DNA from: Octopus sinensis
Lineage: Eukaryota
Direction: 5' to 3'
Assembly: GCF_006345805.1 (NCBI RefSeq)
Contig: NW_021826352.1
Coordinates: 1-12,886, forward strand
DNA: 12,886 nt
This document shows positions 1-12,886 of this stretch, piece after piece (position 1 is the stretch's first letter; each line of letters starts with the position of its first letter). A program made the translations under genes and the position numbers. The notes beneath the pieces were generated by a model, which saw only the letters and a list, made by a program, of their open reading frames with translations, made no database searches and was not told the origin of the DNA.

Positions 1-350
1 CGTACTAGTAGGGTATTAAGAGCACCATCTGAGCGTGATCGTTACCAGAGCGGCGCTATCTGGCCTCCATGCCAGTGGCACATAAAAGACACCATTCAAG
101 CGTGATCATTACCAGCATTGCTTACTGGCACCTGTGCCGGTGGCATGTGTAAAATATTTGAGCAAGGTCGTTGCCAGTGCCACTGGACTGGCCCACGTGC
201 CAGTGGCACGTAAAGGCACCCAATACGCTCTCAGAGTGGTTGGCGTTAGGAAGGGCATCCAGCTGTAGAAACTCTGGTGCAGCCATCTGGTTCACCAGCC
301 CTCAGTCAAAATCGTCTAACACATGCTAGCATGGAGAGCAGGCATTAAAC
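1..350 (+). mobile_element. 3' UTR/tail fragment of an RTE-clade non-LTR retroelement (continues beyond the window start)
   Basis: Reverse-complement match to 3380-3800, which is attached to a recognisable RTE ORF. Shared motifs are GAGTGGTTGGCGTTAGGAAGGGCATCCAGCTGTAGAAAC, CATGCTRGCATGGA, and ~60-65 bp sub-repeats containing GCCRGTGGCAYRTAAAA. Confidence 0.85.
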
Positions 351-353
351 TTG

Positions 354-424
354 ATATATATATATATATATACTATATTATATATAATCTATATATTATA
401 TATATATATATAATATAAATAAAT
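354..424. repeat. (TA)n-rich microsatellite
   Basis: Direct reading. Confidence 0.95.
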
Positions 425-457
425 AAATTGTGAAGCATGACTGTCACCACTAATACA

Positions 458-502
458 TGAACCTGAAGATTGCAGAATTTAATGCATGAAAGTACTAGTT
501 CA
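458..502 (+). ncRNA. Minimal type I hammerhead ribozyme motif (Penelope-like element type)
   Basis: TGAAC (stem I, 458-462), CTGAAGA (463-469), t, TGCA-gaatttaa-TGCA, t (stem II), GAAA (488-491), GTAC, TA, GTTCA (stem I', 498-502). Stem III is the palindrome AGTACT and the predicted cut is after CUA at 497. The innermost stem II position is a U-U mismatch. Confidence 0.8.
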
Positions 503-735
503 ATCAGAATGAACATTTAACATTCTACTATTTTATTTTATTTTATTTCATTATATTATCTTATATCATTATAAGATTGTAAATAAAACATGAAATCAGA
601 CAAGGTTGGAATTCCTTTTATTAATATATTCTTCTATACACAATCACACACACCCATATATATATATATCTATATATATAAATATATAAGAGTGTTGTAG
701 TTTGCTAGAAGCATCATAGTATGAAAGAAGGGGGA

Positions 736-930
736 GAAAAGGGAAAATAGAAAAGCTTTTGATAATACAAAAAGTTTCACAAAACCTTCATATTTCAGGC
801 ATAAAGGCCCGTCCCCAAAAGAAAAGCAGTCTGGGAAACATCTAATTGTACTGAAACTGGCCAAAACAAAAGGTTTTGGCAAACTTTCCGCATTCTCAGA
901 AGCTTTCTCATTTTCGTTTTTTCCCTTTTC
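736..930. repeat. Degenerate inverted-repeat (fold-back) element between TA microsatellites
   Basis: The left arm GAAAAGGGAAAATAGAAAAGCTTTTGATAATACAAAAAGTTTCACAAAACCTT resembles the reverse complement of the right arm (GAAAAGGGAAAAAACGAAAATGAGAAAGCTTCTGAGAATGCGGAAAGTTTGCCAAAACCTT). Confidence 0.65.
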
Positions 931-1009
<79 letters not shown>

Positions 1010-1013
1010 TATA
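931..1013. repeat. (TA)n(TG)n(TA)n compound microsatellite
   Basis: Direct reading. Confidence 0.95.
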
Positions 1014-1071
1014 TCATTACAGATATAGGGTGAAGGATAATTAATTTAATAAAATCAACAAATTTCAACTA

Positions 1072-1335
1072 GGCGCAGAAGTGGCTGTGTGGAAAGTAGC
1101 TTGTTTACCAACCACATGGTTCCGGGATCAGTCCCACTGCATGGCACCTTGGACAAGTGTCTTCTACTATAGCCCCGGGCCGACCAATGCCTTGTGAGTG
1201 GATTTGGTAGATGGAAACTGAAAGAAGCTTGTCGTATATATGTATATATATATATGTGTGTGTGTGTTTGTGTGTCTGTGTTTGTCTCCCTATCATTGCT
1301 TGACAACCGATGCTGGTGTGTTTACGTCCCCGTCA
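1072..1335 (+). mobile_element. tRNA-derived SINE, family A, 3'-truncated
   Basis: The head GGCGCAGAAGTGGCTGTGTGG has A-box-like and GGATCAGTCCC B-box-like motifs, followed by an internal (TA)(TG) tract. Colinear with the reverse complement of 8481-8887. Confidence 0.9.
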
Positions 1336-1507
1336 GACATAAACACACCAGCATCGGTTGTCAAGCAATGATAGGGGGGAAAAACACAGACACACAAACA
1401 TATACACACACATACATATATACATATATACAACAGGCTTCTTTCAGTTGAACCCGGAACCATGTGGTTGGTAAGCAAGCTACTTACCACACAACCACTC
1501 CTGCGCC
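1336..1507 (-). mobile_element. tRNA-derived SINE, family A, 3'-truncated and internally deleted, tail-to-tail with the previous copy
   Basis: Reverse complement of 1072-1130 and ~1217-1328. The middle is deleted at TTTCAGT|TGAACCCGG (~1448). Confidence 0.9.
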
Positions 1508-1601
1508 TATGTAAAGTGCAATATTGATGATAAGGGGAATGAAAAATTTGAACATTCAAACTTTGGGTTTATTTAACAGTTGGTTTAATCATAATAATTG
1601 T

Positions 1602-1690
1602 CCAACATATGTTTCGATCACATTAACTGCTTATTGTTGCATAGTTATATGCAACGATTTATGCATTATTAGTTTGATCTTTTCAGTGTG
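1602..1690 (-). ncRNA. Degenerate hammerhead-like motif with long stem II
   Basis: The minus strand reads CACA-CTGAAAA-GATCA-[extension with the hairpin GTTGCATA-taac-TATGCAAC]-TGATC-GAAA-CATATGT. G8 is replaced by A and stem I is short or ambiguous. Confidence 0.5.
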
Positions 1691-1817
1691 TATAGAAAGG
1701 AGATTGTTTGAAAAGGCATTTTCCTCCGTTAGTATCAAAATTGTATACGACCATGTGTCTATTGTTGGTGATTTTTTTTCCTCCATCTTCCCTTCCTTGG
1801 ATCTTTCCTTTTCCTAT

Positions 1818-1852
1818 GTTTCCGACGAAGAGCTCCACTTGAAACGTTAAAT
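1818..1852 (+). ncRNA. Degenerate minimal hammerhead-like motif
   Basis: GTTT-CCGACGA-AGAGCTCCACTT-GAAA-CG-TT-AAAT. The core differs from CUGANGA at one position, stem III has the palindrome ACGT, and stem II is weakened. It is followed by a ~90 nt tail and (TA)n. Confidence 0.5.
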
Positions 1853-1938
1853 CCTCCTTCTTTCCTTCTTTCCTGAGCGTCCAATAATACTATATTTGTT
1901 CCACGTCCTCACGTTGTTGTGTTTTCATGTTTGGATTA

Positions 1939-1974
<36 letters not shown>

Positions 1975-1977
1975 TAC

Positions 1978-2138
1978 ATACGATGGGCTTCTTTCAGTTT
2001 CTGACTACCAAATCCTCTCACAAGTCTTTGGTCAGCCCTAGGCTATAGTAGAAAACACTTGCCCAAGGTGGCACACTGTAGGACTGAACCGAGAACCATG
2101 TGGTTGTGATGCAAGCTCTGTAACCACACAGCCACAAC
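1978..2138 (-). mobile_element. tRNA-derived SINE, family A, diverged head half
   Basis: Colinear with 8732-8885 (CGAYRGGCTTCTTTCAGTTTC...GGACTGAAC...GAACCATGTGGTTG...ACCACACAGCCAC). Confidence 0.88.
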
Positions 2139-2223
2139 TAGTTAACAGATGAGATATACATATCTCAATAGGGAGAAAGCCAAGACTGAAAATATTCAGA
2201 CATTAAACATTCATGAATAAGTA

Positions 2224-2786
2224 TTAAGTTGTCCGGAATTCCTGAGCGTTTTCATGCTAAATCTTTTAACACTTCATTGAACACACCTGAGACATAAAAA
2301 AGATTAAAACTTTGGTGTTACTTGAAGCGGTTCTGCATCTTTTTTTTTGTTTTCGACAGAAAATAGATTTATCTCTCATTTCAGTTCCCCTTTATTAACA
2401 TTTGAAATGGAGAACCAAATGTTTCATATTCGCGTTGTAATGCTTTTCTTTTTTTCAAAACAAAGGAGGAAATGCCGCAAAGACTTTCAGAAACCTTTGT
2501 GAAGATTATGTTGATGATGATGATGCTGTAGGGGAATCAACTGTTTGAATGTGGTTTGCAAAGTTTAAAGCTGGGGAGTTTAGCTTGGAAGATGACGGTC
2601 GCAGAGAGGGAAGACCTTCAGAATTGGATGAGGATGCTTTGAAGGCAGAAATCGAAGGAAACTCAAATATCACAAAGGGAGAACTTGCAGAGGGGTCGCA
2701 AGTTTCTGAAAGTGTGCTTCATAAAGGAGATCCCTTTTTGCATCTTAAAAAAAAAAAAACAGCTCAGAACTTTCTGGACAACCTAA
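2224..2786 (+). mobile_element. Internally deleted mariner (Tc1/mariner) DNA transposon
   Basis: Imperfect terminal inverted repeats TTAAGTTGTCCGGAATTCCTGAGCGTTTT and (reverse complement) TTAGGTTGTCCAGAAAGTTCTGAGCTGTTTT, flanked by TA at 2222-2223 and 2787-2788. Contains a transposase N-terminus remnant. Confidence 0.9.
2407..2696 (+). pseudogene. Mariner transposase N-terminal HTH DNA-binding region remnant
   Basis: MENQMFHIRVVMLFFF /frameshift/ NKGGNAAKTFRNLCEDY..AVGESTV*MWFAKFKAGEFSLEDDGRREGRPSELDEDALKAEIEGNSNITKGELAE matches the mariner WF.KF..G..SLED..R.GRP motif. It has a stop and a frameshift, and no DD34D domain. Confidence 0.88.
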
Positions 2787-2803
2787 TACACAAATATTCA
2801 CAT

Positions 2804-3017
2804 ATTCTTTACTACTTTTGGCACAAGGCCTGAAATTTTGGGGGAGGGATCCAGTCAATTAGATCGACCCCAGTACGCAACCGGTACTTAATTTATCGAC
2901 CCCAAAAGGATGAAAGGCAAAGTCAACTTCAGCAGAATTTGAACTCAGAAGGTGAATACAGACGAAATACTGCCAAGCATTTCGCCCGGTATGCTAACGT
3001 TTCTGCCAACTCACCAA
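2804..3017 (-). mobile_element. tRNA-derived SINE, family C, near full length
   Basis: The minus strand reads TGGCAGAAACGTTAGCATACCGGGCGAAATGC...TTCTGAGTTCAAATTC (B box)...GACTTTGCCTTTCATCCTTTTGGGGTCGATAAATTAAGTACC, homologous to 4490-4630. It ends in AGTAAAGAAT. Confidence 0.88.
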
Positions 3018-3124
3018 CTTCAAATATTTCCATAGTAACCGAACATGCTTCCACAAAGAACACAAGAAAATTCCTCACCTGAAATTCTTGCATCTTTCTT
3101 TTCTCTCTAATTACCTTCCTTTTA

Positions 3125-3362
3125 TTTGTTTATTTGTTTCAGTCATTTGACAGTGGCCAGGCTGGAGCACTGCCTTAAACGTCTTTAGTCAAAGAAATCG
3201 ACACCAAGACTTATTCTTTGTAAGCCTAGTACTTATTTTACTGGCCTCGTTTGCTGAACCACTAGGTTACGGAGATGTAAACACACCAACATCGGTTATC
3301 AAGTGATGGTAGGGAGACAAACACAGACACAAAGACATATATACATATACATATATATACAT
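3125..3362 (-). mobile_element. tRNA-derived SINE, family A, tail half (head not present)
   Basis: TTGTTTCAGTCATTTGAC...GCTGGAGCAC...GACTTATTCTTTGTAAGCC...GTAAACACACCARCATCGGTT is colinear with 8505-8730. Confidence 0.88.
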
Positions 3363-3366
3363 AATA

Positions 3367-4482
3367 TCATCATCATCATACTCCGCTTTCCATGCTGGCA
3401 TGGGTTGGACGGTTTGACTGAGGACTGGTGAGCCAGATGGCTGCACCAGACTCCAATCTGATCTGGCAAAGTTTCTACAGCTGGATGCCCTTCCTAACGC
3501 CAACCACTCCGAGAGTGTAGTGGGTGCTTTTACATGCCACCGGCACGAGGGCCAGTCAGGTGGTACTGGCAATGGCCACACTCAAATGGTGTTTTTTACA
3601 TGCCACATGTGCAGGACCCAGTCCAGTAGCACTGGCAACACCCTCGCTTGAATCTTGTTTTCCACATACCACCAGCACAAGTACCAGTAAGGCGATGCTG
3701 GTAACAATCAAGCTTGAATGGTGTTTTTTACATGCCACCAGCACAGGGCCAGTCAGCAGCCCTGGCAACAATCACACTCGGATGGTGCCCTTAGCGTTCC
3801 ACTAGCATTGATGCCAGTCATGCAGTGCTGTCACCGAATTTGATTTTGATTTCACTCGCATCAACAGGTCTTCACAAGCAGAGTTTTAGTGTCCAAAGAA
3901 GGAAAAGGTATGCATAAGTGGGCTGATTACGCCCCTGGCATAGGCCATGAGGTTATGGTCACATTTGGCTTGCCGGGTCTTATCAAGCACAGCATATTTC
4001 CAAAAGTCTTGGTCACTAGTCATTGCCTCGATGAGGCCTAATGTTCGAAGGTCATGCTTCACCACTTCATCCCAGGTCTTCCTGGGTCTACCTCTTCCAC
4101 AGATTCACTCAACTGCTAGGGTGTGGCACTTTTTCACACAGCTGTCCTCATCCATTCTTGCGACATGACCATACCAGTGCAGTCGTCTCTCTTGCACACT
4201 ATATCTGATGCTTCTTAGGTCCAACTTTTCTCTCAAGGTACCTACACTCTGTCGAGTATGCACACTGACATTACATATCCATCAGATCATACTGGTTTCA
4301 TTCCTTGTGAGCTTATGCATGTCCTCAGCAGTCACAGCCCATGTTTCACTGCCATGTAGTATGGCTGTTCGTACACAAGCGTCATACAGTCTACCTTTTA
4401 CTCTGAGCGAGAGGCCCTTTGTCACCAGCAGAGGCAAGAGCTCTCTGAACTTTGCTCAGGCTATTCTTATTCCAGCAGCTAT
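3367..4482 (-). mobile_element. 5'-truncated RTE-clade LINE with long sub-repeated 3' UTR and (ATG)n tail
   Basis: ORF2 C-terminal remnant at ~3960-4482, 3' UTR at ~3380-3955, and tail TCATCATCATCAT at 3367-3379 on the + strand. Confidence 0.92.
3960..4482 (-). pseudogene. RTE retrotransposon reverse-transcriptase protein C-terminal remnant
   Basis: A single frame reads AAGIRIA*AKFRELLPLLVTKGLSLRVKGRLYDACVRTAILHGSETW...RRLHWYGHVARMDEDSCVKK...GRGRPRKTWDEVVKHDL, with the RTE-type GSETW, RL.W.GHV.RM and GRP.KTW motifs. In-frame TGA stops lie at 4456-4458, 4282-4284 and 4105-4107. Confidence 0.92.
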
Positions 4483-4489
4483 AAAAAAG

Positions 4490-4894
4490 GGGCAGAAACG
4501 CTAGCATGCCGGGCGAAATGCTTAGCAGTATTTCATCTGCCTCTACGTTCTGAGTTCAAATTCCACCGAGGTCGACTTTGCCTTTCATCCTTTTGGGGTT
4601 GATTAAATAAGTGCCAGTTACGCATTGGGGTCAATATAATCGACAATCCGTTTGTCTGTCCTTGTTTGTCCCCTCTATGCTTAGCCCCTTGTGGGTAGTA
4701 AAGAGATAGGTATTTCGTCTGCCGCTACGTTCTGAGTTCAAATTCCACCGAGGTCGACTTTGCCTTTCATCCTTTCGGGGTCGATTAAATAAGTGCCAGT
4801 TACTCACTGGGGTCGATATAATCGACTTAATCCGTTTGTCTGTCCTTGTTTGTCCCCTCTGTGTGTAGCCCCTTGTGGGCAGTAAAGAAACAAG
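4490..4894 (+). mobile_element. tRNA-derived SINE, family C, with tandemly duplicated ~182 bp body
   Basis: Head GGCAGAAACGCTAGCATGCCGGGCGAAATGC, then unit 1 (4528-4709) and unit 2 (4710-4894). Each unit has the B box GAGTTCAAATTCC and the tail AGCCCCTTGTGGGYAGTAAAGA. Confidence 0.9.
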
Positions 4895-5045
4895 ATATAT
4901 AAATATGTGTAGCTAAAGATTGCATGAAAATGTACATAAACAGTTTACGAGTGACACCATAGAATGAGTTAGGCTAGCATTTTGTTTAGGGTAACATTCT
5001 GTTTCAGGTAGCATTCTCTTTAGGGTTCTGTCAGTCCATGTAGAC

Positions 5046-5279
5046 TCCTGTTTCTCAACCATTTTTTGTCTATGAGTCCCTTTGATTTCTAGTTTACTCA
5101 ACTATTTGAAAAATTCTATCACATCTTTAGAATTAAATATTACAAGGAATTGTATTTTAAAAATTGTTAAAATATTTTGTGCATTTTAGAAGTAAAATCA
5201 ATTTATTTCAGATAAATTTTAACAACAAAATCTTATGTAGACCGTCAAGGGCCGTACAGAGCCCGGATTTGAACCATTG
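5046..5279. mobile_element. Old hAT-type MITE
   Basis: The ends TCCTGTTTCTCAACC and TTTGAACCATTG resemble hAT CAGTGKTTCTCAA termini. The 8-bp flanks ATGTAGAC (5038-5045) and ATATGGAC (5280-5287) match at 6 of 8 positions, consistent with a decayed 8-bp TSD. The interior is AT-rich and non-coding. Confidence 0.6.
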
Positions 5280-5371
5280 ATATGGACCAAGGCAGTGTAG
5301 GCTACAGTAAGGAAGAGTTAGGGTTAGGTAGTTTGTGGCAGATGAAATAGTATAGTATTGTGTAGCCCTGC

Positions 5372-5392
5372 ATATATATATATATATATATA

Positions 5393-5423
<31 letters not shown>
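5372..5423. repeat. (TA)n microsatellite
   Basis: Direct reading. Confidence 0.95.
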
Positions 5424-5426
<3 letters not shown>

Positions 5427-5518
5427 TCAGCAAAATTTAGATTCAGATGAATATGGTACTTAAATTAAAGGCACCAGAATTTGGTATGGTATTAACCATA
5501 TAAATCAAATGGGGAGAT

Positions 5519-5658
5519 TATAATCAAAATAAGCAACAAGGATATCCAAGGTATTGTAGTACAATCGTTTCATGCTACTTCATTTTATTTAATAAAATGA
5601 AGTAGCATGAAACGATTGTACTACAATACCTTGGATATTCCTTGTTGCTTATTTTGAT

Positions 5659-5662
<4 letters not shown>
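5519..5662. repeat. Near-perfect ~144 bp palindrome carrying a hammerhead 3' half in each arm
   Basis: Arms of ~71 bp around a single T at 5590, with one 1-nt indel. An arm contains GTAGCAT-GAAA-C-GATT-GTA-CTAC (5602-5624). Confidence 0.9.
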
Positions 5663-5705
<43 letters not shown>

Positions 5706-6129
5706 AAAAATAGAAGCTGAAAATGCACTGAGAATGGTTCAAATATTTTTTATTAAACTGGTTTCAAGTTTACACTGATTGTCGTAGCTGTTTGAAGTTG
5801 CCTGTTTTTATAGGGAGTTCATAGCTGAAATTAGTAAATGTCTTGAATAGGGTTTGATTGGTAGGGGATAGTCACATGACTAGTCTTAGAAATTTTTGTA
5901 TGTTTTCCTGCTATGTCCAGTCCATGCTTTAGTATGGAGTGACAATGTTTGGTTTGGCTGACACGGTTGACTGAACAAGTCCAAACGATCAATGCTCTGA
6001 GTGTTTTCTGTCAAGTGTTTCTAGAGAATGAACGCATGATTAAGTTTATCACCTTTCATGTGTGTGTGTGCATGTATGTGTGGTAAATTGCTTTTTAGTG
6101 GTGGAGCTCAAAGTAGGTAAAGCTATACA

Positions 6130-6484
6130 CTTTACTCTTTTACTTGTTTCAGTCATTTGACTGCGACCATGCTGGAGCACCGCCTTTAGTCGAGCAACTC
6201 GACCCCGGGATTTATTCTTTTGTAAGCCCAGTCTATCGGTCTCTTTTGCCGAACTGCTAAGTAACGGGGACATAAACACACCAGCATCGGTTGTCAAGCA
6301 ATGCTAGGGGGACAAACACACACAAACACACACACACACATATATACGATGGGCTTCTTTCAGTTCCTGTCTACCAAATTCACTCACAAGGCTTTGGTCG
6401 GCCCGAGGCTATAGTAGAAGGTGCCACTGAACCCGGAACCATGTGGTTGGTAAACAAGCTACTTACCACGCAGCCACTCCTGCA

Positions 6485-6486
<2 letters not shown>
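6130..6486 (-). mobile_element. tRNA-derived SINE, family A, near full length with small internal deletions
   Basis: Colinear with 8481-8887, from the (TTTTACTC) tail to the CAGCCACTCCTGCACC head. Deletions near 6232 and 6420. Confidence 0.92.

Positions 6487-6542
<56 letters not shown>
6487..6542. repeat. Pure (TA)n microsatellite
   Basis: Direct reading. Confidence 0.97.
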
Positions 6543-6545
<3 letters not shown>

Positions 6546-6790
6546 AAGAATGTCTTTAGATAAAAACATCTCTATGTAAATTTTCTCCATTTTCCTCATT
6601 TAAAGTTTATTTAACTACCTATACATTTCGTGATAAACTATTATACTTGGTTTTCTCTGAACGCTGGTATGAACCAGGGAACTAGGATGTGTGTGCATCC
6701 CTTAAGGGACTTTAATTCCTCGACTTATATTTATATATATACATATATATAAATATATGTACACACACACATATATAATATATATATATA

Positions 6791-7203
6791 TAATATTAAT
6801 TAGAGACAAAACCACTATTTTGCAAATCAAACAAAGAAAGACTTAATTCAATACATAAAAAAATTTTAATATAAATTAAATAAAAATATATTCGCCACTA
6901 CAATTGTTTCATGTCTCTTCTCAGGACATTCATCAGGTGGATTTCAGATCTTCTATTTTATTTTAAGTTATGAAGTCTTCATAACTTAAAATAAAATAGA
7001 AGATCTGAAATTATATTTATATTAAAATTTCTCGGATTTAAAATTTCTTCTGATGTATTGATTAAGTCTTTCCTTGTTTGATTTGCAAAATAGTGGTTTT
7101 GTCTCTAATTAATATTATATAATATTTTACTATATATTGGATTCAATCCTAAATCTGATTTTCCCTGTAAATTTGGATTTATTCCCTAATATTTATTATT
7201 ATT
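6791..7203. mobile_element. Fold-back element, probably a Penelope-like retroelement terminal-repeat derivative
   Basis: Outer inverted arms 6791-6856 and 7053-7117, and a perfect inner palindrome 6941-7011 (35-bp arms, centre 6976). A hammerhead lies in the left arm, an unpaired tail at 7118-7203 ends in (ATT)n, and TA tracts flank the element. Confidence 0.7.
6895..6940 (-). ncRNA. Minimal type I hammerhead ribozyme with intact core
   Basis: Minus strand: CCAC, CTGATGA, ATGTC-ctgagaaga-GACAT, GAAA, C-AATT-G, TA, GTGG. All conserved core nucleotides are present, with 4-bp stem I, 5-bp stem II and palindromic stem III ACAATTGT. The predicted GUA cut lies between 6899 and 6898. Confidence 0.88.
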
Positions 7204-7384
7204 ATATATATATATATATATAAATGTATATATATATATATATTTATGTGTGTGTATGTGTGTGTGTGTGTGTATCAAAAGGATATGTTATGATACTATT
7301 CCACATATACAAAAAACAGCCACACCAACAATCCAACATACCCCCATCATCAGCTGTCCCACGGATGTCATTATGGTTTTGATA

Positions 7385-7550
7385 CCTGCGCAGCACCACT
7401 CAATCTGGCAGTGTCAACAGCACTAAAATATGTATAGTAGATGATCCACAAGCATTCAAGCAATCGGAGTCCTCAACTTGTTCCATTAGCCAAAAGGCTT
7501 GCAAGGCACCAGCAGGCCTCAAGAGACACCCTCGTGTCCTTAGAGCATGA
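7385..7550 (+). pseudogene. Possible old RTE-like LINE ORF C-terminus with decayed C2H2 zinc finger
   Basis: 7479-7550 reads CSISQKACKAPAGLKRHPRVLRA*, resembling the terminal C..C.R.C....GL.SH.R.H finger of some RTE elements. Upstream, AQHHSIWQ in another frame resembles A.DR..WR. Confidence 0.4.
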
Positions 7551-7813
7551 CTACCTCTTTATTATACAGGGACATATTATCTGGATGGTTGCCATGGTAG
7601 TTCTCAATTATGTTCCAGTTGTATGACATAATGACTTACTGAAAAATAAAAGAAAATAATTTTGAGGATGTACCAGTCTCCATATTCTCTCTTGTAATGG
7701 TTATTGCATATATATATATATATGTGTGTTTGTGTGTGTGTGTGTGTACACATTATATATTTCATTTTTGTATTTGGTTTGCAAGATTCTTTATGGGAAT
7801 TCGTGTGTTGAAG

Positions 7814-8000
7814 CATATTTTATTGTGTCTGGGGTGGGTCATTCTCTTTTAGTGCCTTATTACTTAACACACTCACTGGTTTGATTTCCACTCATTTACT
7901 TATTTTTTCCTAAAATTTTCGTTACATCTTGCAACCTTTACATTGTGTTAAATAATAAGGCACTAAAAGAGAATGACTCTACCCAGATGCAATAAAATGT
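7814..8000. repeat. Fold-back element with ~56 bp diverged inverted arms and a truncated hammerhead-like motif in the spacer
   Basis: Arms 7814-7871 and 7944-8000 (GTCATTCTCTTTTAGTGCCTTATTA / TAATAAGGCACTAAAAGAGAATGAC). The minus strand of 7909-7939 reads AAAG-GTTGCA-aga-TGTAAC-GAAA-ATTTTA-GG. Confidence 0.75.
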
Positions 8001-8172
8001 ATATGTATATATGTATGTATGTATGTATGTATATATATATGTGAGTGTGTATGTATGTATATATGTGTATGTATGTATGTATGTATGTATGTATGTATGT
8101 ATGTATGTATGTGTGTATGTGTGTGTGTGTATGTATGTATGTATTTATGTGTGTATGTATGTATGCATGCAT
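8000..8172. repeat. (TATG)n/(TG)n microsatellite
   Basis: Direct reading. Confidence 0.95.
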
Positions 8173-8361
8173 GAATAGTTCCAAGCTATATCTGATTGAT
8201 GATACCCTGGGAAACATCATCAGCGATGTTTCTTGGCTGTCATGCAGTTTCTGGTCTTTCAACACCAGACCTTCCACATCAAAAGGTTGTCCCAACTGGA
8301 TTTCCTCAAGTCCCAGCTCGCATCCTAGGTGGCAGTAGCCCACAGAAATGTCCTCTTCATG

Positions 8362-8380
8362 CAACGCCACCTAGTGGCCA
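8362..8380 (-). promoter_or_regulatory. Candidate CTCF binding motif
   Basis: Minus strand TGGCCACTAGGTGGCGTTG against the bilaterian CTCF consensus TGGCCASYAGRKGGCRSYR. Confidence 0.45.
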
Positions 8381-8480
8381 TCTTTACAGATACCACTTTA
8401 CTCTATACCTAATCAGAGCTTTACCAATCGAACTTACCATGTCACTCTGGCAGCTTTCATTTCCACACTGCTCCGTACAT

Positions 8481-8887
8481 ACTCTTTACTCTTTTACTCT
8501 TTTACTTGTTTCAGTCATTTGACTGCAGCCATGCTGGAGCACCGCCTTTAATCAAGCAACTCGACCCCGGGACTTATTCTTTTGTAAGCCCAGTACTTAT
8601 TCTATTGGTCACTTTTGCCGAACTGCTAAGTGAAGGGGACGTAAACACACCAGCATCGGTTGTCAAGCAATGCTAGGGGGACAAACACAGACACACAAAA
8701 CACATACACACACACACATATATACATATATACGACAGGCTTCTTTCAGTTTCCGTCTACCAAATCCACTCACAAGGCTTTGGTCGGCCTGAGGCTATAG
8801 AAGACACTTGCCCTAGGTGCCATGCAGTGGGACTGAACACGGAACCATGTGGTTGGTAAACAAGCAACTTACCACACAGCCACTCCT
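8481..8887 (-). mobile_element. tRNA-derived SINE, family A, essentially full length
   Basis: On the minus strand: head AGGAGTGGCTGTGTGG, B-box-like GTTCAGTCCC, an internal TA/TG tract, a 3' body, and a (GAGTAAAA)n tail. Confidence 0.93.
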
Positions 8888-8935
8888 ATCACCACTACAA
8901 CCACCATCATCTACCTTTTAGCACGTTTTTATATT

Positions 8936-9160
8936 GTCATCGCCATTGTCGTTTAACATCCATTTTTCTCCTCTTGCACAGGTCGGGTAGAATTGGTTGA
9001 GGCACATTCTCTGCAGCTGGATGCTCTTTCCATCACAAACCCTTACTTGCTTCCAAGCAAGGGGAATATTCCGCTATCCCCTCCCCACCGCCCCATCCTC
9101 GCTGGACCTGTTTTGTTATGGAAGACTGGAAATGAAAACCACCGCATACACGAAGACAAG
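8936..9160 (-). mobile_element. Old short retroelement sharing the RTE-type 3' end
   Basis: CAGCTGGATGCTCTTTCCATCACAAACC resembles CAGCTGGATGCCCTTCCTAACGCCAACC (3478-3505). GTCGTTTAACATCC resembles the RTE terminus. Confidence 0.55.
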
Positions 9161-9312
9161 GCTGCACATACACACTTAAGCACACACACACATATACACA
9201 TAAAGGACATCCATGCATGCATATCTATGTATGTATGTATTCATGTATGTATGTATGTATGTATGTATATGTATTTGTTTATGTGTGTGTGTCTGTGTGT
9301 GGAGAGAGCGAG

Positions 9313-9333
9313 ACAGATAAGTAGAAAGATGAA

Positions 9334-9368
<35 letters not shown>

Positions 9369-9369
9369 G

Positions 9370-9421
<52 letters not shown>

Positions 9422-9438
9422 CAGATAGACAGATAGAC

Positions 9439-9481
<43 letters not shown>

Positions 9482-9630
9482 CAGATAGACAGATAGACAG
9501 ATAGATAGATAGATAGATAGATAGACAGATAGATAGATAGACAGATAGACAGATAGACAGATAGACAGATAGATAGATAGATAGATAGATAGACAGATAG
9601 ACAGATAGACAGATAGATAGACAGATAGAC

Positions 9631-9703
<73 letters not shown>

Positions 9704-9754
9704 GATAGAGAGAGAGACAGATAGATAGACAGATAGACAGATAGACAGATAGAC

Positions 9755-9851
<97 letters not shown>

Positions 9852-9879
9852 GATAGAGAGAGAGACAGATAGATAGATA
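9313..9879. repeat. (GATA)n/(GACA)n array, ~570 bp
   Basis: Direct reading. This array generates the YLSI-repeat ORFs. Confidence 0.97.
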
Positions 9880-10061
9880 CACATGCAGACAGACAGTGCG
9901 TAATGAAGCTTGGATGCAACCACCAAACATGCTAAAAATGATAAACACATCTCCCTCAAGACACAGCCGGGTGTCTTCATGAAGGAAGGACTGACCTGAA
10001 GTTAAACGATAACAGCAAGGACTCTCTGGATAATGTAGTCCCAGGTACACAATGCCTGGAT

Positions 10062-10135
10062 AAAAGACAGGATGGTCAGAATTGGAGCATCTTTGATCAT
10101 AGGTCTGCTAGATCTGGACAGAACTGGGGTTGAAC
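10062..10135 (-). repeat. Unclassified interspersed repeat D, copy 1
   Basis: The reverse complement (CCCCAG...AGCAGACCTATGATCAAAGATGCTCCAATTCTGACCATCCTGTC) resembles 11421-11490. Confidence 0.6.
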
Positions 10136-10182
10136 GAGAACATCTTGATCCCACATTATATCTCACCTGGACAGATCAAACT

Positions 10183-10396
10183 ACCACACAACACAACCAC
10201 CACCACCACTACCACCACCACCACCACAACAACAATAACAACAACAACACAAACCACTACAACTGCCACCAATACCACCATCACTCAACATCATCATCAT
10301 CATCATCAGCATCACTACCACAACCACCACTATCACCACTACCACCACAACCACCACCACCACCACCACCACTAATACCACCACCACCACCACCAT
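10183..10396. repeat. (CAC)n/(CAA)n/(CAT)n trinucleotide array
   Basis: Direct reading. Confidence 0.95.
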
Positions 10397-10473
10397 CGCC
10401 TCTCACCCTCGCCCCCTCCCCCACCTCTCCCTTCTCCTTGCTGTGCGTCTCAGAATTTGTCGTGCTGGCCCGG

Positions 10474-10493
10474 TGACGTCATAAGTGACGTCA
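10474..10493. promoter_or_regulatory. Tandem pair of perfect CRE palindromes (TGACGTCA x2)
   Basis: GTGACGTCAT-AA-GTGACGTCAT, with sites at 10474-10481 and 10486-10493. Confidence 0.4.
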
Positions 10494-10559
10494 TCTCACC
10501 ACCAGGGTTTCAGCAGGTCATGGATGTGTGTGCAGGGAGGCGTGTATGCGTTTGTTAAG

Positions 10560-11285
10560 AAGCAGTATGTGTATGTGTGTGCACGTGTGTGTGTATGAGC
10601 ATGTGTGTCATATAATGTTATGTGTGTGCGTGTCTGTATGTGTGACTCTTGTGTTTTATAGTATTACGTTTGTGTGTATGTGTGTGTGTTGTATTTGTAG
10701 TGTGTGTGTGTGTGTTGTATTTTCAGTGTGTGTGTGTGTTGTATTTTTAGTGTGTGTATGTGTGTGTTGTATTTTTAGTGTGTGTGTGTGTGTTGTATTT
10801 TTAGTGTGTGTATGTGTGTGTTGTATTTTCAGTGTGTGTGTGTTGTATTTTTAGTGTGTTGTGTGGTGTTGTTGTATTTGTAGTGTGTGTGTGTGTGTTG
10901 TATTTGTAGTGTGTGTGTGTGTGTGTTGTATTTTCAATGTGTGTGTGTTGTATTTTTAGTGTGTGTATATGTGTGTGTTGTACTTTTTGTGTGTGTGTGT
11001 GTGAATATGTGCACGTAGTGATGTGTGTGTGTATAGTGTGCATGTTAATGTATATGTCTGTATAAATGTATGTGTTGTAATGTAGTGATTGATGTGTGTG
11101 TGATCTGATGTGTGTATGTGTGTGTGTGTGATTTAATGTGTTTATGTATGTATATGTGTGCGTGTGTAATTTATTGTGTATATATGTGTATTTGTGTATC
11201 ATTTAATGTATGTGCGCGCGATTTACTGTGTGTGTGTGTGTGTGTGTGTATGTGAGTGTATATGTGATTTAATGCATGTGTATGC
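10560..11285. repeat. GT-rich array with minisatellite unit (GT)n-TGTATTTKYA
   Basis: The unit TTGTATTT(T/G)(T/C)A(GT)n recurs every ~20-30 bp across 10689-11000, and later units use GATTTAATG. Confidence 0.92.
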
Positions 11286-11420
11286 GCAAAAGTCTGTGTA
11301 TTCACAGTAAGTGGGCGTTGGCGTTAGAGGGGGGTGAGGTATTTGTGACGATGCATGGACTGTCACGTGACTAGAATACTAGAATTTGTGGTGGTGGTGG
11401 TGGTGGCAGTGTAATTGTTG

Positions 11421-11490
11421 CTTAGCCCCAGGTCAAACCCCGGTCAAGCAGACTATGACGAAAGAGATTCCAACCATAGCCATCCTGACA
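11421..11490 (+). repeat. Unclassified interspersed repeat D, copy 2
   Basis: AGCCCCAGGTCAAACCCCGGTCAAGCAGACTATGACGAAAGAGATTCCAACCATAGCCATCCTGAC is an inverted homologue of 10062-10135. Confidence 0.6.
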
Positions 11491-11557
11491 TTTTTTCCTA
11501 TGAAAAGCTCTCACAACACCATGTATAACCTTGTGTATCCTTTATTCACACACTAAG

Positions 11558-11715
11558 AAGGAGATTTGGTTGCTATTTTTAGCAGGTCTAGTTAACATGT
11601 AGGAGTCTCTTTTTGGTTCATAAATACATATATACAAGCATCAGACAGCAGGGTGTGATTTCAGGAAGATTTGGGTACTATTTCAGATGGGGGGAACTAT
11701 CATACAGGAGTCTCC
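11558..11715 (+). repeat. Two diverged copies of short repeat E (AGATTTGG..CTATTT..GGAGTCTC)
   Basis: Copies at 11558-11610 and 11664-11715, with related copies at 12757-12820 and 12860-12886. Confidence 0.55.
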
Positions 11716-11728
11716 ACAATTTGCCTCA

Positions 11729-11730
<2 letters not shown>

Positions 11731-11766
<36 letters not shown>

Positions 11767-11953
11767 TACAATATACATACTATATAATATATGTATATAT
11801 ATATATATAATATATGTATATACATATATATATATATTATTATATATATATATATTATATATATGTAATATATATATATATATAGTACATCTACATACAT
11901 ACATAACATATATATATACATACATATATATATACATACATATACATATATGT

Positions 11954-11995
<42 letters not shown>

Positions 11996-12742
11996 TTACA
12001 TATAAATATAGATTCATACATATATGTATGTACATATATGTGTGTGTGAGTATCTTCTATATATATATATCTATATAAATAGATAGATAGATAGGTGCAT
12101 ATACACACATACATACACATACATACATACCCACATACATACATATATAGACACAGACACACATACAGATACATACATACCTACATACACACATACACAC
12201 ACACACATGCAAATACATACATACATTCATATGTACATACATATATACATATACACATTAAGATACATACACACAAATACATACATACACACATAAATAG
12301 ATACATACATACACACACACATACATACACAGATACATATATACGAACACACATACATATATACATACATACACTCATACATACATACGTAAATACATAC
12401 ATACACACATACACACACACATACATACATACCAACATATATACATACATACATACATACATACATACACACATATCTACATACATACATACATGCACAA
12501 ATACATACATACATACACACATACATACACACACACATACATACACACATATCTACATACATACATACACACATGCATACACACATACATACATACATAC
12601 ACACATACACACACACATACACACATGCATACATACACACATACACACATACATACATACACACATGCATACATACACACATACACACATACACACATAC
12701 ACACACACACATACACACACATACGCACATAGATACATACAT
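11731..12742. repeat. ~1 kb (TA)n grading into (CATA)n/(CA)n compound microsatellite
   Basis: Direct reading. Source of the YI/HT/MYVC-repeat ORFs. Confidence 0.97.
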
Positions 12743-12886
12743 AAGAGTCTGATCTGAAATAGATTTAGCTACTGTATATCCAGGTCTAGCTACTACGCAG
12801 AGCGGTCACCCTCATTGGTTCATACGTATATACATACGTAACGCAGTAGAACATGATTTGAGGAAGATTTGGCACCTATTTCTGGT

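Follow-up and report, generated by a model that had tools for sequence, protein, structure and literature searches.

A hammerhead motif of probable Penelope-like origin, predicted to fold as a dimer, in a truncated repeat of Octopus sinensis

Metazoan minimal hammerheads (min-HHRs), as covered by the sections of PMC4209133 used here, occur by the thousands per genome in many animals, mostly as single truncated ends of Penelope-like elements (PLEs). The PLE subtype has a small palindromic helix III, a short stem I and AU-rich flanks; a G10.1-C11.1 pair is its consensus (>80%), and an extra base after A9 is also typical. Minimal PLE hammerheads are described there as inactive when monomeric and weak as dimers, and the dimer model of small hammerheads is reviewed in PMC6765202. 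In the lizard Anolis carolinensis, the PAc Poseidon element carries a hammerhead in its PLE pseudo-LTR, which cuts only with the element's protein present and whose cleavage is dispensable for insertion in vitro (PMC11167929). In octopus, PLEs make up 6.83% of the Octopus vulgaris genome according to a 2026 repeat annotation (PMC13282606); the word hammerhead does not occur in the available text of that annotation, supplement included, and the motifs of the family presented below had no match in the supplement. Literature searches for hammerheads together with octopus or cephalopod returned no description of such a family. Small PLE hammerheads cleaving as dimers were reportedly treated by Lunse et al. 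2017, and the list in that work may already include the family.

The window analysed here is a stretch of 12,886 nucleotides from Octopus sinensis (NW_021826352.1, positions 1 to 12,886), an animal-like DNA rich in repeats and microsatellites. Scanning its two strands with a descriptor revealed a type I hammerhead layout at 458-502 of the plus strand, with all core bases present. The 45-base motif ends in stem I, formed by TGAAC (458-462) and GTTCA (498-502) in five Watson-Crick pairs, and stems I and II flank the core. The first core strand, C3 to A9, reads CUGAAGA (C463, U464, G465, A466, A467, G468, A469) and the second, G12 A13 A14 A15.1, is the GAAA of 488-491; the whole set expected of a hammerhead (C3 U4 G5 A6 N7 G8 A9, G12 A13 A14 A15.1, U16.1 H17) is in place. 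Stem II (470-487) has four pairs by scan and folding, TGCA at 471-474 with TGCA at 483-486, an 8-nt loop (475-482), and at its base, where a 10.1-11.1 pair is expected, a U470·U487 mismatch. Helix III is the perfect palindrome AGUACU (AGTACT, 491-496), for which pairing is predicted only between two copies. H17 is A497, in a CUA triplet, which by hammerhead numbering places the predicted cut at 497/498. These stems, core, palindrome and CUA site are the ones that a preliminary description of the locus had named, and all were found as it gave them.

When the dinucleotides of the window were shuffled 3000 times, 3 shuffles gave matches having stems I and II of at least 4 pairs, and none produced one with a palindromic helix III of at least 6 nt. 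The plain pattern, for which 0.08 matches were expected, was found twice in the window. Rfam matched no hammerhead family, either in the window or in 400-640, and the folding energy of the motif is ordinary (z -0.37), so that the evidence is the motif itself and not its stability. We conclude that 458-502 is a real hammerhead motif, beyond chance. The second plain-pattern match (4290-4328, minus strand) failed the stem test and was rejected as a hammerhead.

When compared with the shrimp, Hydra, D. willistoni, rotifer and mosquito PLE rows of PMC4209133, as far as these sections go, the locus has in common with them the type I layout, the short stem I, the CUGANGA/GAAA core, the palindromic helix III, the NUA site, the AU-rich 3′ flank and the occurrence mostly as single truncated copies. 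Its palindromic 15.2-16.2 and loop 3, and a helix III predicted to be unstable in the monomer, are as in PLE hammerheads with small helix III, and so is its membership of a multi-copy family made mostly of single truncated copies. It differs from the subtype by the lack of G10.1-C11.1, a stem II of only 4 bp and a large share of U4C in its family; nor could a PLE ORF be linked to it. The extra base after A9 that precedes G10.1-C11.1 in min-HHRs is also missing, on a 1x1 reading of U470·U487. The shrimp row (Fig. S3 of PMC4209133) has the same outline with a U at 11.1, a 2-nt palindromic loop and CUA, and a U...U can be read on the two sides of stem II in those of Hydra and D. willistoni, in an extracted text where the GAAA column is detached; on this reading, the published PLE rows include exceptions to the usual extra base and G10.1-C11.1. 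The motif at 458-502 is an ordinary further example of a kind described in 2014 (PMC4209133); it adds one more hammerhead family and has little significance by itself.

Our main reading, to which we give a probability of about three in four, is that 458-502 is the hammerhead of a Penelope-like pseudo-LTR, situated near the 3′ end of a 5′-truncated repeat copy and dependent on dimer formation. The family was sampled by aligning to 421-655, at 80% likeness, the contigs of 4 public runs (of 24, with five organism codes). This gave 940 contigs in run X1, 763 in X3, and 3 and 13 in the two others; X1 and X3 are DNA runs, and X4 is guessed to be RNA. The repeat is present in hundreds of contigs, in runs from two organisms. 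Relatives extend upstream of 424/425 in 20, 12, 20 and 6 contigs among the matches listed, which means that the window copy is 5′-truncated. At the other side, again among the matches listed, relatives run into (TA)n behind position 650 (15 and 18 contigs) and behind 629 (9 and 12 contigs). The window copy, from 425 to 655 on the plus strand, is best described as the end-piece of a dispersed high-copy repeat, likely a PLE pseudo-LTR, with an AT-rich tail (503-655) leading to the family 3′ end near 650; over 503-640 the tail has 19% GC. The copy is bordered by two (AT)n tracts, 354-425 on the left and 656-688 on the right, which are likely part of the insertion target. The preliminary description had proposed a retroelement-like 3′ end, with a tail of about 140 nt and an AATAAA. 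The motif does lie near such an end, the family stopping in (TA)n, with a tail longer than proposed, as the family ends near 650 and not 640. The AATAAA (582-587) is at chance level, being found in 32% of 10,000 shuffles of 503-640, and was rejected as a poly(A) signal.

In their layout, the three neighbouring repeats of the window are inverted pairs, which would fit the one described for PLE insertions. The description in question (bioRxiv 10.1101/2021.04.23.441226, in the part considered) reports 5′-truncated PLE copies in inverted layout, together with microsatellite targeting. Points counted against a PLE origin include the lack of a reverse transcriptase (RT) or GIY-YIG link, the absence of G10.1-C11.1 and of the extra base, and the fact that (TA)n targeting is shared with Naiads, of which it is also typical and which are without hammerheads (bioRxiv 10.1101/2021.04.23.441226). 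Regarding the first point, the window copy is truncated, and neither Pfam, the longer-protein search, the PLE supplement, nor the viral, metagenome and prokaryote contigs tied an RT or GIY-YIG gene to the family. Translated in its three plus frames, 421-655 matched no Pfam family, and the longer-protein search, applied to one frame of the same segment, had a single candidate and no match. The family motifs had no match in the PLE supplement, that of the journal version of bioRxiv 10.1101/2021.04.23.441226, and family-specific patterns had none in viral, metagenome and prokaryote contigs. A looser U...U pattern was present at no fewer than 119 metagenome loci, and 4 of these 119 had a stem I of at least 4 pairs with a U·U-closed stem II of at least 3, none of them family-like. 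In PAc Poseidon the ORF starts in stem II (PMC11167929, in the part considered), whereas in the window copy the frames that start from the AUGs of positions 457, 482 and 486 run for just 8-12 codons, and no protein relative was found.

Folding was then predicted for one and for two copies. In the monomer, the pair probability of helix III was at most 0.0007 in five contexts. Across two copies, the AGUACU self-duplex was given -4.8 kcal/mol. For a pair of 45-mers, the best structure predicted was a hammerhead-shaped dimer at -17.0 kcal/mol, compared to -5.4 for the monomer. The idea in the preliminary description that such a minimal hammerhead would need a dimeric fold agrees with these predictions. 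The energy gain of the dimer is unexceptional, as it was equalled by 262 out of 500 shuffles of the full sequence and by 69 out of 500 in which helix III was shuffled, and for this reason the dimer energy was rejected as evidence. Stem I is marginal in its flanking context, with pair probabilities of 0.07 to 0.89. It is rivalled by a second TGAAC at 510-514 of the plus strand, able by folding to pair with 498-502 (probability 0.02 to 0.47 depending on flanks). The common family variants 512 G and 514 T would both keep this rival hairpin pairing by wobble; a designed switch was nevertheless rejected, since two transitions prove nothing.

Under the PLE reading, and as suggested by the fold and the literature, a tandem parent transcript would bring together two hammerheads sharing a 6-bp helix III through AGUACU. 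The cut after A497 would be made only when two copies pair, and the element's protein would possibly assist pairing or cleavage, for which PAc Poseidon offers a model (PMC11167929). Cleavage would then release a unit-length RNA with 2′,3′-cyclic phosphate and 5′-OH ends. The lone window copy is probably idle, given that no same-family partner for 421-660 is present elsewhere in the window and that stem I is marginal in context.

Variation within the family bears on the mismatch at 470/487 and on core position 464. The only positions of 458-502 at which variants make up 3% of depth or more in the DNA runs are 464 and, in loop II, 475, 477 and 480; depth in the family is not to be equated with copy number. 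At 470 or 471 no other letter reached 3% of depth in any of the 4 runs, and at 487 a C makes up 0.05% of depth in one DNA run and 0.02% in the other, and is present in one contig of X4. The U470·U487 mismatch is therefore the family state, and not a defect of the window copy. The preliminary description had treated it as a defect to be repaired by changing T470 to A; this does not hold, as T470A is no repair when no other letter reaches 3% at 470, and natural U10.1·U11.1 hammerheads are published. The variant listings of the 4 aligned runs contain no T>A change.

Position 464 behaves differently: a C, i.e. the U4C change, accounts for 44.8% of depth in X1 (26 contigs) and 21.3% in X3 (6 contigs). 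Few contigs with high depth suggest a young and homogeneous U4C subfamily, which may, as we infer, also carry 480 C and 514 T. The core announced as complete by the preliminary description is complete in the window copy, and lacks U4 in 45% and 21% of the family depth; conservation of the core among paralogues, on which the hammerhead proposal had been staked, holds for all core bases but 464. Apart from 464, the core bases, both stems (with no variant of 3% or more in the 5′ strand of stem I, and none listed in GAAA) and the palindrome are constant across the family while loop II varies. The flank 421-457 varies as little as the motif does, differing only at 453, where the private A453 of the window copy is the outlier. 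The constancy of the motif therefore does not demonstrate selection on the ribozyme.

Both deviations of this octopus family, U10.1·U11.1 and U4C, are described by Perreault et al. 2011 (PMC3088659). As far as that source was used, variant cores are considered there to be compensated by tertiary contacts for the damage they do; the minimal motif at 458-502 is without such contacts. We tentatively consider, with much less confidence than the PLE reading as such, a PLE family whose young and heavily amplified subfamily spread with a doubly weakened hammerhead, combining the fixed U10.1·U11.1 with U4C and without compensating tertiary contacts. If true, nature would have provided, in the U4 and C4 subfamilies, a test of whether the mobility of a PLE depends on cutting by its hammerhead or whether the element's protein rescues a weakened one. 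The U4/C4 split is the one useful angle of the family, as it bears on what PLE hammerheads do in vivo.

A related explanation, compatible with PLE ancestry, is that the family descends from a hammerhead element and spreads although cleavage is no longer required or attained. U4C, much less active in vitro (PMC3088659), is found in a high-depth part of the family and speaks for such a vestige, as do the context-dependent weakness of stem I and the lizard PLE hammerhead, mutants of which showed unreduced insertion in vitro, with no RNA ends at the cut site (PMC11167929, within the part considered). It is contradicted by the constancy of the stems, the palindrome and the core other than 464 next to a variable loop II, and by two points of PMC3088659: an infectious viroid tolerates U4C, remaining viable with it, and of the mispairs at 10.1-11.1, U·U is tolerated best. 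We hold such a vestige to be rather unlikely.

The copy could also be a solo unit of a non-LTR retrozyme. Retrozymes of this type are short repeats without coding capacity, which form tandem arrays that hammerheads process to circular RNAs. HHR_Amex2 of the axolotl non-LTR retrozymes shares the U·U mismatch at its helix II base; its monomer cleaves 22% in an hour, and the dimer much more (PMC7229834). No ORF is linked to the 421-655 repeat, as would be expected of a retrozyme, and a derivation of retrozymes from PLE pseudo-LTRs has been proposed (bioRxiv 10.64898/2026.07.22.740005, in the part considered). However, HHR_Amex2 is described as canonical, with loop-loop contacts, and belongs to tandem repeats of 350 bp from which circular RNA arises, whereas the 458-502 family is dispersed and ends in (TA)n. 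Among the matches listed, the loose ends behind 629 and 650 enter (TA)n and not the upstream sequence of the family, and no joint between the family 3′ end and its start was seen (18 of 144 loose ends, in short contigs). Also, the window has no tandem array of the 421-655 repeat in the head-to-tail form of retrozymes (about 150-450 bp), and stem I has 5 bp as against the canonical 6 bp (PMC4209133). We regard a retrozyme as improbable, and keep the PLE pseudo-LTR as the preferred assignment.

It is very improbable that the window copy is an active ribozyme which cuts a host transcript, whether alone as a monomer or paired in trans to further copies: its core is intact and so abundant a family could provide trans partners, but helix III is absent from the predicted monomer, the rival hairpin competes with stem I, a single min-HHR was inactive in PMC4209133, as far as consulted, and no recognisable host gene surrounds the motif in the window. 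Finally, a chance arrangement in AT-rich DNA can be dismissed, in spite of the silence of Rfam and the ordinary folding energy, because no shuffle matched the full descriptor, the copies of a whole repeat family retain the motif, and a second, unrelated family of the window has the same architecture.

This second intact hammerhead, detected by descriptor scan and folding, lies at 6940-6895 of the minus strand and belongs to an unrelated repeat family. It is fully paired, with a 4-bp stem I, CUGAUGA, a 5-bp stem II starting with A-U, the palindrome ACAAUUGU and a GUA site, and is better formed than the motif at 458-502. It sits in 6771-7137, an inverted-pair insertion flanked by (AT)n. Being on the opposite strand and having a different palindrome, it is no partner for 458-502.

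Another inverted pair, near-perfect (98%), occupies 5519-5662. Each of its arms has only the 3′ half of a hammerhead, the 5′ core being missing, with GAAA at 5609 (plus) and 5571 (minus) and a wobble-palindromic helix III; the pair also yields spurious Rfam miRNA matches. A CAT directly before GAAA, together with an NUA site, is found in all three repeat families (at 488; at 5609 and 5571; at 6910), a hint that they may form a single lineage-specific subtype having U at 11.1. The third inverted pair (7817-7871 and 7944-7998, 89%) lies between microsatellites, and near 7910-7950 of the minus strand a decayed hairpin is followed by GAAA-ATTT-TA, possibly a fourth hammerhead family.

Other repeats of the window were noted in passing. 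An interrupted frame at 2430-2730 (plus) resembles what we take to be the DNA-binding N-terminus of a mariner transposase, with no Pfam match for 2549-2760, and another at 3900-4500 (minus) resembles what is presumably the C-terminal part of an RTE-type LINE protein. A hairpin made from inverted pieces of a SINE-like repeat is present at 1250-1421, and copies of related repeats at 1950-2117, 3119-3331, 6129-6492 and 8491-8898.

Outside the window, the metagenome contigs contained a conserved type I hammerhead family, unrelated to that of 458-502, with the same AGUACU palindrome (L048 2858-2908, also L060, L043 and L074). No recognisable PLE-sized ORF was found in L048, where two frames of ~100 aa were seen. 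In these four contigs, 2 of which are labelled plant metagenome, a TATA-like box and CCAAT-like boxes precede the hammerheads by ∼40-50 bases.
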